64,000 nucleotides of DNA from Escherichia coli (GTDB taxonomy: Bacteria > Pseudomonadota > Gammaproteobacteria > Enterobacterales > Enterobacteriaceae). A program made the translations under genes and the position numbers. The stretch lies in the NCBI RefSeq assembly GCF_044324785.1, contig NZ_CP172127.1. One strand, 5' to 3'. Below, one piece after another: positions 9,492 through 46,181 of the stretch (positions are counted from its first letter, which is position 1; each line of letters begins with the position of its first letter). Below the pieces are notes generated by a model. That model was given only the letters and a program-made list of their open reading frames with translations. It made no database searches and was not told the origin of the DNA.

Positions 9492-10454
9492 TTATTGCAC
9501 GAAGCGCGAGGTAACGTACTGGCTGTAATCGTTCGCTACAGCCGGGACTTTGCCCTGCTCTTTCAAAAACTGCGCGGTGTCGATGATCGCTTTGTTCACC
9601 GGTCCGATCAGTTCTGCCGTTTGCTGCTGCGGCGTCAGATAGGTATTCCCCTTCACCAGCCCCGGAACGTCACCTTCAGGCACGCCGCTTAACCGCGCCA
9701 GTTTGCTGATGTTTTCAGGCTGTTTCAGCCACGCGTCTGGGTTAGCAATGTACGGTTGCTGAGCATCGATGGCGCTTTTGGCGAACGCTTTCACGACCTC
9801 TGGATGTTTCTCGGCAAAATCTTTGCGCACCACCCAGACGTCCAGTGTCGGCGCGCCCCACAGCCCGACCTGTTCAGAATCGGTCAGCACCTTGCCGTCT
9901 TTTTCCAGGGCGTTAACCGCCGGTGCCCAGACATAAGCACCATCAATGTCTCCCCGTTGCCATGCGGCGATAATCGCGGGTGGCTGCAGGTTCACTATCT
10001 CCACTTGTCCGGGTTTTATACCCCAGTGTTTCAGCGCCGCCAGCAGGCTGTAGTGGGTGGTGGAGATAAACGGTACGGCGATGCGTTTGCCAATCAGATC
10101 TTCCGGTTTGCTGATAGTTTTCTTTACCACCAGCGCTTCGGAGTTACCCAGTTTTGACGCCAGCAAGAAGACTTCAATCGGCACCTGTTGGCTGGCTGCA
10201 ACCGCTAATGGGCTGGAACCGAGGTTGCCGATTTGCACGTCGCCTGAAGCCAGCGCCCGCACGATGCTGGCTCCGCTGTCAAACTTACGCCAGTCAACGC
10301 TCGCCCCACTCTCTTTAGCAAAGGTGTTATCAGCCTGAGCCACTTTCGCCGGTTCAGCGGAGGTTTGATAGGCCACGGTGACGTTCACCGCCTGTGCCTG
10401 AAAAGCGATGAATGCCAGTGCGGCAAGAAGTGTGTTACGCGATGAAATTGCCAT
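9492..10454 (-). CDS. tauA: Taurine ABC transporter periplasmic binding protein, 320 aa
   Basis: Start placed at ATG 10454 (MAISSRNTLLAALAFIAFQAQA signal peptide); the ORF-track start 10511 is an upstream extension. Confidence 0.85.
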   Translation of the reverse strand: MAISSRNTLLAALAFIAFQAQAVNVTVAYQTSAEPAKVAQADNTFAKESGASVDWRKFDSGASIVRALASGDVQIGNLGSSPLAVAASQQVPIEVFLLASKLGNSEALVVKKTISKPEDLIGKRIAVPFISTTHYSLLAALKHWGIKPGQVEIVNLQPPAIIAAWQRGDIDGAYVWAPAVNALEKDGKVLTDSEQVGLWGAPTLDVWVVRKDFAEKHPEVVKAFAKSAIDAQQPYIANPDAWLKQPENISKLARLSGVPEGDVPGLVKGNTYLTPQQQTAELIGPVNKAIIDTAQFLKEQGKVPAVANDYSQYVTSRFVQ

Positions 10455-11060
10455 GATTGTCTGCTCCCCTGTCTTGTTATAGGAGCAGTATTCAGGAATA
10501 AAAACATTCATTAAAAGAATTAGTCGTTATCGCACAGATGATTTTATTCTTAGCAAAAAAGCGGCAAAGGAAAGATTAAATATGCAATTACACCCACTCT
10601 GACAATTCAGTAAGTTACTGCACTTCATTTTATTAATGCATAAACAAGCAGATTATAATGTCTTTTATTTTATTAACAGCAATACATATAATGAAACCAT
10701 CATATTCACATCGCATATATAACTGTGTCATTCTCAATCAACCACATAATATATTCACATCATGTATATAATCCATATTTGCGCATAGAACATATTTTTA
10801 AATGTAATTAATTGACAAACTAAATCACATCTAAATACAATATATAAAACAAAATAACTATACAAACCAAACACACAAACACTTAACATATGAACTACAT
10901 AAAAGATTACGCAGTCGTATCCACGTACCTGAAAGCCCCTTATTTTTCAGCTATCAGTAATTTTTAACACTTAAATATTAGCATCTATCTGCGCCAGAGA
11001 TTACGTCTCTGCGGGCATCGTTGTGCTTGTAGTATAATAAATAAAATGGAGTGTCATTAA

Positions 11061-11732
11061 GTGGATAAGGTTTTAGATTCAGCCATCCTTTCTTCAGCAA
11101 ATAAAAGAAAGGGTATCCTTGCTATTGGCGCACATCCTGACGATATAGAATTGGGCTGTGGCGCGTCGCTCGCTCGTCTTGCAAAAAAAGGGTTCTATAT
11201 TGCAGCGGTAGTGATGACATCGGGTAATTCCGGCGTGAGTGAAATAATTAATCGACATCAGGAATCACTCGAAGCATTAAACATTTTGGGGTGTCAACAA
11301 ACTATTCATTTTAATTTTGCTGACACCCGTACTCATTTACAACTTAATGATATGATTTCCGCTCTGGAAGATGTCCTTAAAAAACAAATTCCGTCTGATG
11401 TAGAAATCATTCGTGTATACACCATGCATGATGCTGACCGCCATCAGGATCATCTTGCAGTCTATCAAGCCTCAATGGTTGCCTGTCGCGCTATTCCGCA
11501 AATTCTCGGCTATGAAACGCCAAGTACCTGGCTTTCATTTATGCCACAGGTTTTTGAATCCGTGGAAGAGGAATATTTCACCATTAAACTGGCTGCATTA
11601 AAACAGCATAAGAGCCAGGGCCATCGTGATTATATGCGCCCGGATCGCCTGCGTGCAGTTGCACAATTTCGCGGGCAACAGGTCAATAGCGATCTGGGTG
11701 AAGGCTTTGTAATTCATAAAATGATTCTTTGA
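11061..11732 (+). CDS. yaiS: LmbE/PIG-L-family putative N-acetylglucosaminyl deacetylase, 223 aa
   Basis: Motif AIGAHPDDIELGCG near N-terminus; GTG start at 11061 is the only in-frame start before the domain; TATAAT at 11033-11038 and GGAG at 11047-11050 upstream. Confidence 0.75.
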   Translation: MDKVLDSAILSSANKRKGILAIGAHPDDIELGCGASLARLAKKGFYIAAVVMTSGNSGVSEIINRHQESLEALNILGCQQTIHFNFADTRTHLQLNDMISALEDVLKKQIPSDVEIIRVYTMHDADRHQDHLAVYQASMVACRAIPQILGYETPSTWLSFMPQVFESVEEEYFTIKLAALKQHKSQGHRDYMRPDRLRAVAQFRGQQVNSDLGEGFVIHKMIL

Positions 11733-25227: not shown

Positions 25228-25417
25228 TTCAGTACCTCACGACTCGGACAAAATGCCGTTGCGCGCACAGTACAGCGCAACTTATTTTGTTAAAAACATG
25301 TAAATGATTTTTTATTGTGCGCTCAGTATAGGAAGGGTGTTTTCGGCTACAATCAAAACATGCCCGAATGTGCACCAGGTGCACCACGTTGTTTTAACTA
25401 TAGAAATGTCAATTAAT

Positions 25418-43465: not shown

Positions 43466-44356
43466 TTATTTCACCTGGCTACGGGCAAACAGGTCGTCGA
43501 GCTTCTCTTCGTACTGGTAGTAGTTGATGCTTTCGTACAGCTCGTTGCGGGTCTGCATGGTGTCGATGACGCTTTTCTGCGTCCCTTCCTGACGCAGGAC
43601 GTTGTAGACATGCTCAGCGGCGCGGTTCATGGCGCGGAACGCTGAAAGTGGGTACAGCGCCATTGCGACATGGGCGCTGCGTAATTCGTCGGTGGTAAAC
43701 AGCGGTGTTGCGCCAAATTCGGTGATGTTGGCGAGGATCGGCACCTGCACCGCATCGGCAAACTGGCGGTACATGGCGAGTTCGGTAATCGCCTCCGGGA
43801 ACAACATCTCGGCACCCGCTTCAACATAGGCCTGCGCACGCTCAATCGCCGCATCCAGCCCCTCTACCGCCAGCGCATCGGTGCGCGCCATGATCACAAA
43901 ATCAGGATCGGTTTTCGCATCCACCGCCGCGCGGATCCGATCCACCATTTCTTCTTTCGAGACGATCGCTTTATTCGGGCGATGACCGCAACGTTTCGCA
44001 CCAACCTGATCTTCAATATGCAATCCTGCCGCACCGGCTTTAATCATCGATTTCACGGTGCGCGCCACGTTAAAAGCAGAAGAACCAAAACCGATATCCG
44101 CATCCACCAGCAGCGGCAGCGAACAAACGTCGGTGATACGGCGAATATCTGTCAGCACGTCATCAAGAGTAGAAATACCGAGATCGGGCAGCCCCAGCGA
44201 CCCTGCCGCCACGCCACCGCCGGAGAGATAAATTGCCTGATATCCGGCACGCTGCGCCAACAGCGCATGGTTGGCGTTGATGGTGCCGACAATCTGTAAT
44301 GGATTTTCTTTAGTCAGTGCAGCGCGAAACGCTTTACCTGGAGAGTGTAGAGACAT
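43466..44356 (-). CDS. prpB: 2-methylisocitrate lyase, 296 aa
   Basis: Recognised by sequence and operon position. Confidence 0.9.
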
Positions 44357-44402
44357 AGCCCATCCTTTGTTATCAACTTGTTATTTGCGTTGATAAACAC
44401 AA

Positions 44403-44418
44403 AGCAAGGGGTGTGCCA
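44403..44418 (-). promoter_or_regulatory. Sigma54 (-24/-12) promoter for prpBCDE
   Basis: Minus strand reads TGGCAC-ACCCC-TTGC, an exact match to TGGCAC-N5-TTGC; sits between prpR and prpB. Confidence 0.7.
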
Positions 44419-44594
44419 CAATTGCCTTAATAAAATTAAATGTTTAATTTCAATTTGTTAGCAATATAGTCATGAAGTAATCCGCAAATATGCGTTTCAG
44501 TTAACGTTTCAGGCAATGTTTCACCGCGTTTCATTGCAACAATTATGAAACAAGACTAAACCCAATATTCGGTTTCTTAACTTTGCGGTGCGCT

Positions 44595-46181
44595 ATGGCA
44601 CATCCACCACGGCTGAATGACGACAAACCGGTTATCTGGACGGTATCTGTAACGCGGCTGTTCGAGCTGTTTCGCGATATCAGCCTCGAGTTTGATCATC
44701 TGGCGAACATTACCCCTATCCAGCTTGGCTTTGAAAAAGCGGTGACCTACATCCGCAAGAAACTGGCAAGCGAACGCTGTGACGCCATCATCGCTGCTGG
44801 CTCTAACGGCGCATATCTTAAAAGCCGCCTGTCAGTGCCAGTTATTTTGATTAAACCGAGCGGCTACGATGTGTTACAGGCACTGGCAAAAGCCGGAAAA
44901 CTCACCTCTTCTATCGGCGTTGTGACTTATCAGGAAACTATTCCGTCGCTGGTGGCGTTTCAAAAAACCTTTAATTTGCGCCTCGACCAACGTAGCTACA
45001 TTACCGAAGAAGACGCGCGCGGGCAGATTAACGAGCTGAAAGCTAACGGCACCGAAGCGGTGGTCGGCGCGGGGCTGATTACCGATTTGGCAGAAGAAGC
45101 CGGAATGACCGGAATTTTTATCTATTCCGCCGCCACCGTGCGCCAGGCATTCAGCGATGCGCTGGATATGACGCGCATGTCGTTACGCCATAACACTCAC
45201 AATGCCACCCGTAACGCCCTGCGTACTCGTTACGTGCTGGGCGATATGCTCGGTCAATCATCACAGATGGAACAGGTACGGCAGACTATTATGCTGTATG
45301 CCCGCTCCAGTGCGGCGGTGTTGATTGAAGGGGAAACGGGGACGGGCAAAGAGCTGGCGGCCCAGGCGATTCATCGGGAATATTTTGCCCGCCACGATGC
45401 GCGACAGGGCAAAAAGTCGCATCCGTTTGTTGCCGTCAACTGCGGGGCGATTGCCGAATCGCTGCTGGAAGCAGAGCTGTTTGGCTATGAGGAAGGGGCG
45501 TTTACCGGCTCGCGACGCGGAGGACGCGCCGGACTGTTCGAAATTGCCCACGGCGGCACGCTGTTTCTTGACGAGATAGGCGAAATGCCTCTGCCATTGC
45601 AGACTCGGCTGTTACGAGTGCTGGAAGAAAAAGAGGTCACTCGCGTCGGCGGGCATCAGCCTGTTCCGGTGGATGTGCGGGTCATTAGCGCCACCCACTG
45701 CAATCTGGAAGAAGATATGCGGCAAGGGAAGTTTCGCCGTGACCTGTTTTATCGGCTGAGTATTTTGCGTCTGCAATTGCCACCACTGCGCGAGCGGGTG
45801 GCGGATATTCTTCCGCTGGCGGAAAGCTTTTTGAAAGTGTCTCTGGCGGCGCTCTCCGCCCCGTTTTCTGCCGCATTACGCCAGGGATTACAGGCAAGCG
45901 AAACCGTGCTGGTGCACTACGACTGGCCGGGCAATATTCGTGAACTGCGCAATATGATGGAGCGACTGGCGCTGTTTTTAAGTGTGGAACCGACGCCGGA
46001 TTTAACGCCGCAATTTTTGCAGCTGCTACTGCCGGAGCTGGCGCGCGAGTCGGCGAAAATTCCCGCTCCACGCTTACTGACACCACAACAGGCACTGGAG
46101 AAATTTAAAGGCGATAAAACAGCAGCGGCGAATTATTTAGGCATAAGCCGGACGACGTTCTGGCGGCGGCTGAAAAACTGA
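44595..46181 (+). CDS. prpR: Sigma54-dependent activator of the prp operon, 528 aa
   Basis: AAA+ sigma54-interaction motifs ([14 protein letters not shown]); start placed at ATG 44595. Confidence 0.9.

Follow-up and report, generated by a model that had tools for sequence, protein, structure and literature searches.

A palindrome downstream of the sigma-54 promoter of prpBCDE in Escherichia coli, possibly half of an ArcA operator

The leader of prpB in Escherichia coli contains a perfect inverted repeat between the sigma-54 promoter and the start codon, which raises the question of whether this palindrome has a regulatory role and which factor would read it. We analysed a 64,000-nucleotide stretch of the E. 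coli chromosome (hereafter the window) that includes the divergent prpR-prpBCDE control region. An initial annotation had proposed PrpR-dependent sigma-54 transcription of prpBCDE and, for the palindrome, an IHF site, a site for another regulator or an RNA hairpin. Our preferred reading, to which we give a probability of about 0.5, is that the "palindrome" of this control region is half of a predicted operator for phosphorylated ArcA (ArcA~P) at about +9 to +26 of the prpB promoter; the palindrome as such would then probably not be the functional unit. The elements of the region are listed here by their position in the window.

43466-44356, minus strand: prpB coding sequence (2-methylisocitrate lyase), with the A of its ATG at 44356; from the ORF list, the RefSeq annotation of identical E. 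coli DNA and Pfam PEP_mutase/ICL
44363-44367, minus strand: Shine-Dalgarno sequence AAGGA of prpB, read from the sequence 6 nt before the ATG and kept as (A/G)AGGA in the enteric alignment
44367-44384, plus strand (opposite prpB): candidate ArcA-type box TTGTTATCAACTTGTTAT, a matrix match at about +9 to +26 of the prpB promoter
44370-44377: promoter-distal arm of the inverted repeat, TTATCAAC on the plus strand and GTTGATAA in the sense of the prpB mRNA, within the ArcA-type box
44389-44396: promoter-proximal arm, GTTGATAA on the plus strand and TTATCAAC in the mRNA sense, spanning the predicted start; its conserved core ATCAAC runs from 44394 to 44389
44392, minus strand: predicted start of prpB transcription, placed 12 nt downstream of the C in the -12 GC, which leaves 36 nt to the ATG
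44404-44418, minus strand: sigma-54 -24/-12 element TGGCAC-ACCCC-TTGC, from pattern match, ChIP-seq, SELEX and alignment
44448-44460, plus strand: predicted IHF-like core TTTCAATTTGTTA, which differs from WATCAANNNNTTR at one position and lies between the PrpR sites and the promoter, centred at about -62
44493-44551, plus strand: PrpR enhancer of four direct GTTTCA half-sites and one inverted (repeats D2, D6, I10 and I11), with the inverted pair GTTTCAT-N10-ATGAAAC at 44528-44551
44536-44553, minus strand: second ArcA-matrix match TTGTTTCATAATTGTTGC (16.2 bits), overlapping PrpR half-sites and the -35 to -18 region of the prpR promoter
44571, plus strand: prpR transcription start, 24 nt before the ATG, mapped in K-12 (347691; Kim 2012, Table S1) and transferred through the K-12 alignment
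44595-46181, plus strand: prpR (sigma-54 enhancer-binding protein), with its ATG at 44595; from the ORF list, RefSeq and the Pfam domains PrpR_N, Sigma54_activat (E = 1e-65) and HTH_8

The promoter can be settled largely from published data. TGGCACACCCCTTGC (TGGCAC-N5-TTGC) occurs at 44404-44418 on the minus strand, with exact spacing of the GG and GC doublets, and is the sole match in the window; the annotation had the motif and strand right and began it at 44403, which takes in the next T. The pattern by itself is not rare (0.32 matches expected, and at least one in 26 of 100 shuffles), so the reality of the element rests on its context, its conservation and the published occupancy of the identical K-12 sequence. 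The context is the spacer between the prpB ATG at 44356 and the prpR ATG at 44595. The element (alignment positions T63-T78) is invariant in 26 enteric species, and a -24/-12 match is found upstream of prpB in 80 of 80 loci, betaproteobacteria included, with two outliers at 204 nt (L066) and 104 nt (L042) before the ATG, well beyond the rest. Regarding occupancy, the 17-mer GTGGCACACCCCTTGCT is sigma-54 ChIP-seq peak OS01 of E. coli K-12 (Bonocora 2015), genomic SELEX also gave a peak between prpR and prpB (Shimada 2021), and in Salmonella sigma-54 binds the orthologous promoter, which is 45-fold dependent on it (Samuels 2013). In our alignment the 17-mer and the predicted start are identical between the window and K-12, which differ by a single base from the -24 element to the prpB ATG. 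The data published on the identical sequence thus show that sigma-54 RNA polymerase binds the element at 44404-44418, and this half of the locus was already known because that same 17-mer is bound by sigma-54 in the K-12 ChIP-seq data.

Upstream of the promoter, the GTTTCA array at 44493-44551 fits the published PrpR consensus CGTTTCATGAAACG. Once activated by 2-methylcitrate, PrpR acts from this array, some 100-160 bp upstream, and IHF is needed between array and promoter, prpBCDE expression being reported to require it; the predicted IHF-like core TTTCAATTTGTTA, at about -62, would occupy the position expected for it. The proposal of PrpR-dependent sigma-54 transcription was therefore right, and is already documented by ChIP-seq, SELEX, the dependence seen in Salmonella and the domains of PrpR. 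The window promoter is the PrpR/sigma-54 promoter of E. coli K-12 and Salmonella enterica LT2 with no substantive difference, and it shares with them the PrpR half-sites, the IHF-like site and the divergent prpR.

The start at 44392 matters for what follows. It derives from the rule used by Bonocora (2015), 12 nt after the -12 GC, and is not a mapped start; the distance given there for prpB is 36. Table S1 of Kim 2012 has the prpR start and none for prpB, the part of the Cappable-seq GTF and SMRT-Cappable-seq supplements available to us has no start near K-12 347860-347889 or 348640-348669, and EcoCyc lists the prpB promoter as predicted. A scan of 44300-44650 for sigma-70 promoters and terminators returned none.

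The inverted repeat itself is present as annotated, its arms (44370-44377 and 44389-44396) being complementary at 8 of 8 positions across a spacer of 11 nt (repeat I6). By itself it could be due to chance: when the intergenic region was shuffled with its dinucleotides kept, 370 of 2000 sequences (18.5%) had a perfect inverted repeat of 8 bp whose loop measured 3-30 nt. Its 6-bp core, ATCAAC/GTTGAT, varies little or not at all among 21 species of Escherichia, Citrobacter and Kluyvera, and is absent from Salmonella, Pseudocitrobacter and more distant Enterobacterales. Within E. coli, strain EC0430 has ATTAAC (C to T) in the proximal arm.

Among the three suggestions made for the palindrome, a regulator other than IHF fits best, with the correction that the conserved unit is an ArcA-type direct repeat and not the palindrome as such. 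On the plus strand the leader holds an invariant block, TGTTA-N6-TGTTA (44368-44383), whose TGTTA repeats at 44368-44372 and 44379-44383 lie 11 bp apart, centre to centre. We built an ArcA matrix from 115 of the 128 published ChIP-verified boxes (Park et al. 2013), so that it only approximates the published one; on this scale the candidate box TTGTTATCAACTTGTTAT scores 16.1 bits, and the ChIP-verified boxes have a mean of 15.8 and a range of 9.1-21 bits. Sites of at least 15 bits number four in the 64 kb (both strands), two of them in the 239-bp spacer. Two sites in the spacer arose in 3 of 5000 shuffles and one site of at least 16 bits in the leader alone in 12 of 5000, and the exact TGTTA-N6-TGTTA is unique in the window (0.09 expected). 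With the boxes of fumC, gadE, nupC and astC (Park et al. 2013) the prpB box has in common two TGTTA repeats 11 bp apart and an average score, and its first repeat, TTGTTATC, recurs in the ChIP-verified boxes of fumC, gadE and nupC.

All 7 diverse E. coli strains compared have this block unchanged, and in orthologous prpB leaders a box scoring 12-20 bits is present at a distance of 9-14 nt from the ATG, always on the antisense strand. Scores are 16.8 and 19.3 bits in Salmonella, 16.9 and 18.4 in Pseudocitrobacter, 12.2 in Morganella and 12.9-20.1 in most Providencia (in one species the best match lies 19 nt out), and most Xenorhabdus and Photorhabdus have a box in matching place and orientation; in all these genera the spacer differs and there is no palindrome. 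Across the orthologous boxes, positions 2-5, 13-14 and 17 are conserved at 96-100% versus 48-84% for spacer positions 7-12, the conservation of the repeats being inflated because the same ArcA matrix picked the boxes. The taxonomic distribution of ArcA served as background in judging this conservation. Betaproteobacterial prpB leaders have no ArcA box (all below 5.5 bits), nor does the Shimwellia leader (-0.1 bits). The matrix is not fully specific, because it also matches PrpR half-site arrays, including betaproteobacterial enhancers, in bacteria some of which, to our knowledge, have no ArcA. In Xenorhabdus and Photorhabdus the second repeat of the box, TGAAAC, is itself a PrpR half-site, and the second match in the spacer, TTGTTTCATAATTGTTGC, may be a mere look-alike of the PrpR half-site array.

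Upstream of prpR, the matrix of Park et al. 2013 had already predicted an ArcA site scoring at least 15 bits, and prpR was 2.9-fold up in their ΔarcA strain (p = 0.0014). Their ΔarcA list does not contain prpBCDE, but the operon is uninduced in glucose without propionate, and they report no ArcA ChIP peak in the prpR/prpB spacer under anaerobic growth on glucose. The literature we searched contains no study tying ArcA to prp, no reported ArcA effect on prpBCDE itself and no ArcA footprint data for the spacer. The prpB box resembles the rest of the regulon in that its target, as for most members, is an oxidative carbon-catabolic operon, and differs in having no ChIP peak in the published experiment and in its placement: it lies downstream of the +1 of a sigma-54 promoter, whereas at most ArcA-repressed targets the box overlaps the -35, -10 or +1 of a sigma-70 promoter. 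The vector pPro24 apparently keeps the native leader only to ...ACAAG, judging from the primer, and is still propionate-inducible; the distal arm is therefore not needed for activation. The TAACAA beside the Shine-Dalgarno sequence could instead be a feature of the mRNA, which counts against the ArcA reading. A third ArcA repeat at the proximal arm (cGTTGAT) was rejected because it lies 9 bp (E. coli) or 10 bp (Citrobacter and Kluyvera) from the second repeat, and ArcA does not protect repeats spaced even 12 bp apart (Park 2013). The conservation of ATCAAC at -2 to +4, in Escherichia, Citrobacter and Kluyvera only, is left unexplained by an ArcA box.

Other regulators were considered for the leader by eye and set aside: a DnaA box has 2 mismatches, the half-sites for Fur are wrongly arranged, and CRP, PurR, CytR, PhoP, CpxR and TorR match poorly. 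For FNR, ATCAA is present, and the partner half-site is without the critical G, the match leaning on the TTT of the promoter; PhoB reaches 12 of 18 positions without the C of CTGTCAT, and PrpR would meet GTTATC, not GTTTCA. A literature search for sRNA control of prpB gave cases in Neisseria only.

What the proximal arm might contribute brings in readings at the RNA level. The repeat could indeed pair, as the annotation supposed, and an mRNA starting at 44394-44396, 2-4 nt upstream of the rule position, would begin with an AUCAAC...GUUGAU stem-loop; we consider this unlikely, and the role it would have in Escherichia, Citrobacter and Kluyvera, shielding the 5' end from decay or tuning translation, is doubtful to the same degree. 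The arms are invariant around a spacer of 10, 11 or 12 nt and variable sequence, which suits an RNA loop over a dimeric protein site, and the first base of the conserved block is A44394, a purine that follows the -12 C by 10 nt. Folding of the full stem gives -6.2 kcal/mol (z = -8.1 versus shuffles; -3.9 for the 6-bp core), the EC0430 change, the sole arm variant seen within E. coli, would make a G·U pair, both arms are lost together in Salmonella, and in Shimwellia this place is taken by another palindrome (-6.3 kcal/mol). A stem in the sigma-54 transcript is nevertheless doubtful because the rule-of-thumb start falls inside the 5' arm: an mRNA from 44392 loses 4 of the 8 nt of that arm and retains 4 bp at -0.9 kcal/mol. 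Among mapped sigma-54 starts a distance of 12-13 nt from the GC is commoner than one of 10, which also speaks against it. No compensatory changes occur in the 21 species that have the helix, double-sided changes being found only in outgroups without it, and one species, Citrobacter sp. R56, has a broken pair. The hairpin is absent from Salmonella, Pseudocitrobacter, Providencia, Morganella and Photorhabdus, its stem is weak and AU-rich, and it matches no Rfam family (a scan of 44250-44700 gave only a chance HLE match, E = 0.62, 17 bits versus a 60-bit threshold). Bacterial mRNAs of the ompA type carry stabilising stem-loops at the extreme 5' end; prpB would share this position and the variable loop length if its start were at 44394-44396, but the predicted start drops half of the 5' arm, and the prpB stem, at -3.9 to -6.2 kcal/mol, is weak and lacks covariation. 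A larger fold, with the repeat as the apex of a longer dyad (44354-44370 versus 44399-44415) that would pair the CT-rich sigma-54 core with the Shine-Dalgarno sequence and AUG, strikes us as very unlikely. Transcripts from upstream would fold and stay untranslated and sigma-54 transcripts, starting inside the 5' half, would stay open, a behaviour that we likewise regard as very improbable. Complementarity over 17 nt (76%) does flank the repeat (I1), and the predicted fold of RNA that begins at the -24 element, which contains CCC:GGG and CUUUGU:ACAAAG pairs, reaches -21.5 kcal/mol, at z = -2 to -4 in most tested species of Escherichia, Citrobacter and Kluyvera (-1.4 in one Citrobacter amalonaticus) and mostly about 0 to -2 elsewhere. 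A preprint (bioRxiv 10.1101/086108) reports CT-rich anti-Shine-Dalgarno insulation in sigma-54 promoters, and the pyrimidine-rich prpB core ACCCCTTGCTTTGT is likewise complementary to the Shine-Dalgarno sequence and start codon; for prpB the predicted change in accessibility is modest (the mean unpaired probability of the Shine-Dalgarno sequence falls from 0.45 to 0.23), and no source of read-through was identified. No same-strand promoter is evident upstream, prpR is divergent, so that read-through would have to cross 1.6 kb of antisense prpR, and a pyrimidine-rich -12 region together with a purine-rich Shine-Dalgarno sequence would by themselves produce some of the complementarity.

The repeat might also be a chance palindrome in an AT-rich leader, conserved by short divergence time and translation-initiation constraints and with no separate regulatory function. 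Its frequency in shuffles (18.5%), its retention in closely related genera only and the working of pPro vectors without the distal arm agree with this, but both arms and TAACAA are fixed in the 21 species in which the 6 nt before ATCAAC and the 5-6 after vary freely, and the direct-repeat pair persists across genera with diverged spacers; we hold the absence of such a function to be quite unlikely. A second IHF site is highly improbable. Here TATCAACTTGTTA (44371-44383) would bind IHF downstream of the promoter, bend the DNA and modulate sigma-54 transcription. It does match the core WATCAANNNNTTR exactly, as IHF sites such as lambda attP H' do, and it lies in a 78% direct repeat (D1, 44366-44383) whose other copy, the upstream IHF-like site, is 77 bp away and points the same way. 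The exact core is, however, common (7 in the window versus 2.4 expected), and this one, at about +10 to +22, is downstream of +1 and not between enhancer and promoter, misplaced for sigma-54 looping and without an A/T tract 5' of the core. By inspection it is lost in Salmonella (1 mismatch in arizonae, 2 in diarizonae), Pseudocitrobacter and Providencia, though the TGTTA repeats remain, so that it is unconserved outside the Escherichia/Citrobacter/Kluyvera clade, and the match arises largely from TGTTA-N6-TGTTA having TCAAC in its spacer. Finally, the 40 bp from the -12 to the Shine-Dalgarno sequence may be doubly coded, its distal half being an ArcA~P operator in the DNA across Enterobacterales and the same bases pairing with the start region in the RNA of Escherichia, Citrobacter and Kluyvera. 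A constraint on DNA and RNA at once would account for two arms that stay fixed and do not covary; we find this combination quite improbable, and no less so its RNA half, which would be a stabilising hairpin at the 5' end (with +1 at 44394-44396) or else the top of a hairpin silencing read-through transcripts.

Under the ArcA operator that we favour, the plus-strand ArcA box would consist of the distal arm and the adjoining TAACAA. In anaerobic or microaerobic cells a dimer of phosphorylated ArcA would bind at about +9 to +26 and hinder open-complex formation or promoter escape, which we infer would repress the sigma-54 promoter from a downstream operator. The second possible ArcA site, over the prpR promoter, would add to this repression. 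The respiration-dependent methylcitrate cycle would in this way be switched off together with known targets of ArcA repression, the TCA-cycle and beta-oxidation genes.

The promoter half of this locus brings nothing new, and the candidate ArcA operator is a modest addition to the known regulation. The effect of ArcA is likely modest, and a site had already been flagged computationally for prpR in 2013. If real, the operator would exemplify repression of a sigma-54 promoter from a site downstream of it, and those who work with pPro-type prpR-PprpB expression constructs or propionate biosensors might choose to keep or remove this sequence according to oxygen supply. It would also link oxygen and redox sensing directly to the methylcitrate cycle in enteric bacteria.

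prpB starts at 44356 on the minus strand and prpR at 44595 on the plus strand, so the region analyzed, part of the E. coli chromosome, is exactly the 238-bp spacer between these divergent genes. The 351 bases around it are 100% identical to strain CFSAN061763, where they are annotated as prpB / prpR; of 5426 complete E. coli genomes, 5219 contain them. A single base (G for C at -6) separates the window from K-12 MG1655 between the -24 element and the prpB start codon, and published K-12 data are therefore directly applicable. The prpR start, mapped at K-12 347691 (Kim 2012), corresponds to 44571 in the window.

Features of the prpB/prpR spacer and its flanking genes
44356..43466, minus strand: prpB, product matching PEP_mutase/ICL
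44367-44384, plus strand: ArcA-type box TTGTTATCAACTTGTTAT, 16.1 bits (training mean 15.8)
44370-44377 and 44389-44396: inverted repeat arms TTATCAAC / GTTGATAA, fully complementary, 11-nt spacer
44404-44418, minus strand: sigma-54 -24/-12 element TGGCACACCCCTTGC, sole match in the window
44448-44460: IHF core with one mismatch, near -62
44493-44551: PrpR half-sites, four direct and one inverted GTTTCA, upstream of the sigma-54 element
44536-44553, minus strand: second ArcA-matrix match TTGTTTCATAATTGTTGC, 16.2 bits
44595, plus strand: ATG of prpR, product with PrpR_N, a sigma-54 interaction domain (E = 1e-65) and HTH_8

The PrpR-dependent sigma-54 promoter proposed in the initial annotation is borne out. 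The bare pattern, exact here, is not rare (0.32 expected in the window; 26 of 100 shuffles contain one), so the element's reality rests on other evidence. The identical 17-mer GTGGCACACCCCTTGCT is the K-12 sigma-54 ChIP-seq peak OS01, for which transcription was predicted to begin 36 nt upstream of prpB (Bonocora 2015, PMC4591121); genomic SELEX with RpoN holoenzyme selected the prpR/prpB spacer (Shimada 2021, PMC8743547); and in Salmonella the orthologous TGGCATAGCCTTTGCTTT is bound by sigma-54 and prpBCDE is 45-fold sigma-54-dependent (Samuels 2013, PMC3844500). The GTTTCA half-sites agree with the published PrpR enhancer consensus CGTTTCATGAAACG (PMC4987338). Sigma-54 holoenzyme occupies 44404-44418, and PrpR, IHF and sigma-54 are needed for expression. 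The element is invariant across the 26 enteric species aligned, and a match lies upstream of prpB in 80/80 fetched orthologous loci, betaproteobacteria included, usually 54-90 nt from the ATG (104 nt in locus L042, 204 nt in L066). This promoter of prpB was correctly called and is already known. The direct GTTTCA copies are spaced by 12, 12 and 10-11 bp, and the array, with its inverted copy, extends up to the prpR promoter (start ~44571, K-12), an overlap that suggests PrpR autoregulation.

The inverted repeat is present as described, with perfectly complementary arms, and is unremarkable by itself: when the spacer is dinucleotide-shuffled, a comparable repeat turns up 18.5% of the time. Its core, ATCAAC / GTTGAT, is retained in 21 Escherichia, Citrobacter and Kluyvera species (sole exceptions one ATTCAAC and one GCTGAT), in which the six bases 5' of ATCAAC and the five or six 3' of it vary freely and the arms lie 10, 11 or 12 nt apart. 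Among the orthologous leaders compared, those of Salmonella arizonae and diarizonae, Pseudocitrobacter, Providencia, Morganella, Xenorhabdus and Photorhabdus do not carry the repeat. In E. coli EC0430 (locus L082), ATTAAC replaces ATCAAC in the promoter-proximal arm and one nucleotide is deleted between this arm and the -12 element; the ArcA-type box is unchanged. Shimwellia pseudoproteus (L069, ~2455-2485) carries another palindrome, ATTGCG-N14-CGCAAT (-6.3 kcal/mol as RNA), likewise between the -12 element and the Shine-Dalgarno.

We find the palindrome better described, from its sequence and conservation, as half of a candidate ArcA operator, one flagged computationally before. The most invariant stretch of the leader, TAACAAGTTGATAAC(A), adjoins the Shine-Dalgarno and reads TGTTA-TCAACT-TGTTA on the plus strand, with TGTTA direct repeats 11 bp apart; Park et al. 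2013 (PMC3798270) describe ArcA boxes as two direct repeats at such spacing. A weight matrix built from the 115 readable boxes of Table S3 of that study and run over the whole window returned just four sites of at least 15 bits on both strands of the 64 kb, two of them in the prpB/prpR spacer. Shuffling the spacer yields a site of at least 16 bits in 2.1% of trials and two such sites in 0.06%; shuffling the 47-nt leader yields one in 0.24%. Exact TGTTA-N6-TGTTA occurs once in the window (0.09 expected), and TTGTTATC also opens the ChIP-verified ArcA boxes of fumC, gadE and nupC. The second match overlaps PrpR half-sites and the prpR -35..-18 region; matches of its type also occur at betaproteobacterial PrpR enhancers, which indicates that TGTTTC half-site arrays at 10-12 bp spacing mimic ArcA direct repeats and that 44536-44553 may be such a look-alike rather than an ArcA site. 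Elsewhere in the window, which spans the mhpR-mhpA region, the published, ChIP-verified mhpA box TTGTTAAAAACATGTAAA (25287-25304, 19.8 bits) belongs to the training set and served as a positive control. Outside the 115 matrix boxes, ATGTAGTTCATATGTTAA (10883-10900, minus strand, 15.7 bits) lies within the divergent spacer of ORFs 9492-10511 (minus) and 11061-11732 (plus).

The prpB leaders of all 80 orthologous loci were scored with the same matrix. An antisense-strand box sits 9-14 nt upstream of the start codon in Escherichia, Citrobacter and Kluyvera (12.4-17.2 bits), Salmonella (ATGCTATTAAATTGTTAA, 16.8 bits; ATGTTAGTAAATTGTTAC, 19.3 bits), Pseudocitrobacter (16.9 and 18.4 bits), Morganella (12.2 bits), most Providencia (12.9-20.1 bits; the best match of P. 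burhodogranariea is 19 nt out) and most Xenorhabdus and Photorhabdus (11-15 bits). Salmonella and Pseudocitrobacter lack the palindrome but retain the box, or have a better one. Conservation across 25 distinct boxes is 96-100% at repeat positions against 48-84% at spacer positions, a contrast overstated because this matrix also served to select the boxes. Among enterics Shimwellia is an exception, its L069 leader showing no ArcA-like box by the matrix (-0.1 bits). Betaproteobacterial leaders, among them those of Janthinobacterium, Massilia and Duganella, stay under 5.5 bits; these bacteria are not known to have ArcA. In Photorhabdus and Xenorhabdus leaders (L024, L027, L029, L031, L035, L041 and others; ~2455-2495), TTGTTA(C/T)-N5-ATGAAAC stands just upstream of prpB, its ATGAAAC being a PrpR half-site downstream of the sigma-54 promoter; in several, an extra TGTTA 22 bp from the first gives three repeats in 11-bp phase, with ATGAAAC in the middle.

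The initial annotation had offered an IHF site, another regulator's site or an RNA hairpin for the palindrome. An exact IHF core is present in the leader, but the window holds 7 such cores where 2.4 are expected, the position of this one relative to the promoter is wrong (downstream), and it is not conserved where the TGTTA repeats are; the core seems rather to result incidentally from the ArcA-type repeat and its TCAAC spacer. We consider a hairpin in the prpB leader unlikely. Folding energies are -6.2 kcal/mol for all 8 bp of the stem and -3.9 kcal/mol for its conserved 6 bp, but the start predicted by the sigma-54 rule (12 nt after the C of GC), C44392, falls inside the 5' arm and would leave the transcript with CAAC...GUUG (-0.9 kcal/mol). 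No mapped prpB start was found in the accessible parts of Kim 2012 Table S1 and the Cappable-seq and SMRT-Cappable-seq supplements. Loop length does vary between species, the lone E. coli variant (ATTAAC, strain EC0430) would pair as G·U, and conservation starts precisely at a purine, A44394, a possible true start. Against this, pair counts on the alignment gave no compensatory changes in helix-bearing species, the few cells with both sides changed deriving from outgroups that do not fold, and no Rfam family matched. A double constraint, the 3' arm as DNA operator and the 5' arm as its RNA complement, could fix both arms and would also explain the missing covariation.

In another, improbable reading the repeat would be the apex of a longer insulating dyad, in which the CT-rich promoter core ACCCCTTGCTTTGT pairs with its complement in the Shine-Dalgarno and start codon of prpB, resembling the insulation reported for sigma-54 promoters (bioRxiv 10.1101/086108). 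An imperfect 17-nt dyad (44354-44370 and 44399-44415, 76% complementary) flanks the palindrome. RNA from the -24 element or farther upstream folds to -21.5 kcal/mol. Most of the Escherichia, Citrobacter and Kluyvera species tested give z values from -2 to -4, one Citrobacter amalonaticus gives -1.4, and other genera mostly fall between about 0 and -2; the predicted drop in Shine-Dalgarno accessibility is nonetheless modest (0.45 to 0.23), and no source of read-through is evident.

Of the suggestion of a regulator site, then, the distal arm stands, as half of the candidate ArcA operator; the palindrome as such probably does not, and the second arm is clade-specific. The ArcA reading leaves unexplained why ATCAAC, at -2..+4 and cut by the predicted prpB start, is invariant in three genera with variable spacer length. 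As a third ArcA repeat it would be out of phase (9-10 bp), and even a repeat at 12-bp spacing was left unprotected (Park et al. 2013, PMC3798270); it is also unsuited as the site of a dimeric palindrome-binding protein.

The candidate ArcA operator bears on published data. During anaerobic growth on glucose prpR is 2.9-fold higher in ΔarcA (Table S5), and it is one of seven operons for which the matrix gave a site of 15 bits or more and ChIP gave no signal (Park et al. 2013, PMC3798270). The site had thus been predicted before, and that ChIP, the only in vivo test available, was negative for binding. prpBCDE is absent from the ΔarcA list of that study, as expected of an uninduced, catabolite-repressed operon. 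Literature searches pairing ArcA with the prp genes turned up nothing further. The pPro24 primer ACAAGCTAGCAGGAGG (PMC10101121) indicates that this vector retains the native leader only to ...ACAAG and so lacks the distal arm and one of the ArcA repeats; pPro24 is strongly propionate-inducible, so the element is dispensable for activation, as expected of a negative or modulatory site.

In the mechanism we propose, a reduced quinone pool would lead ArcB to phosphorylate ArcA, and an ArcA~P dimer on both TGTTA repeats (~+9..+26) may hinder open-complex formation or promoter escape. At most ArcA-repressed targets the boxes overlap the stretch bound by RNA polymerase (Park et al. 2013, PMC3798270), whereas prpB is transcribed by sigma-54 polymerase and has its box downstream of +1. 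Bound ArcA~P, together with reduced prpR expression, would keep the methylcitrate cycle off without respiration, which would fit the logic of the ArcA regulon, the repression of carbon-oxidation pathways (Park et al. 2013, PMC3798270).
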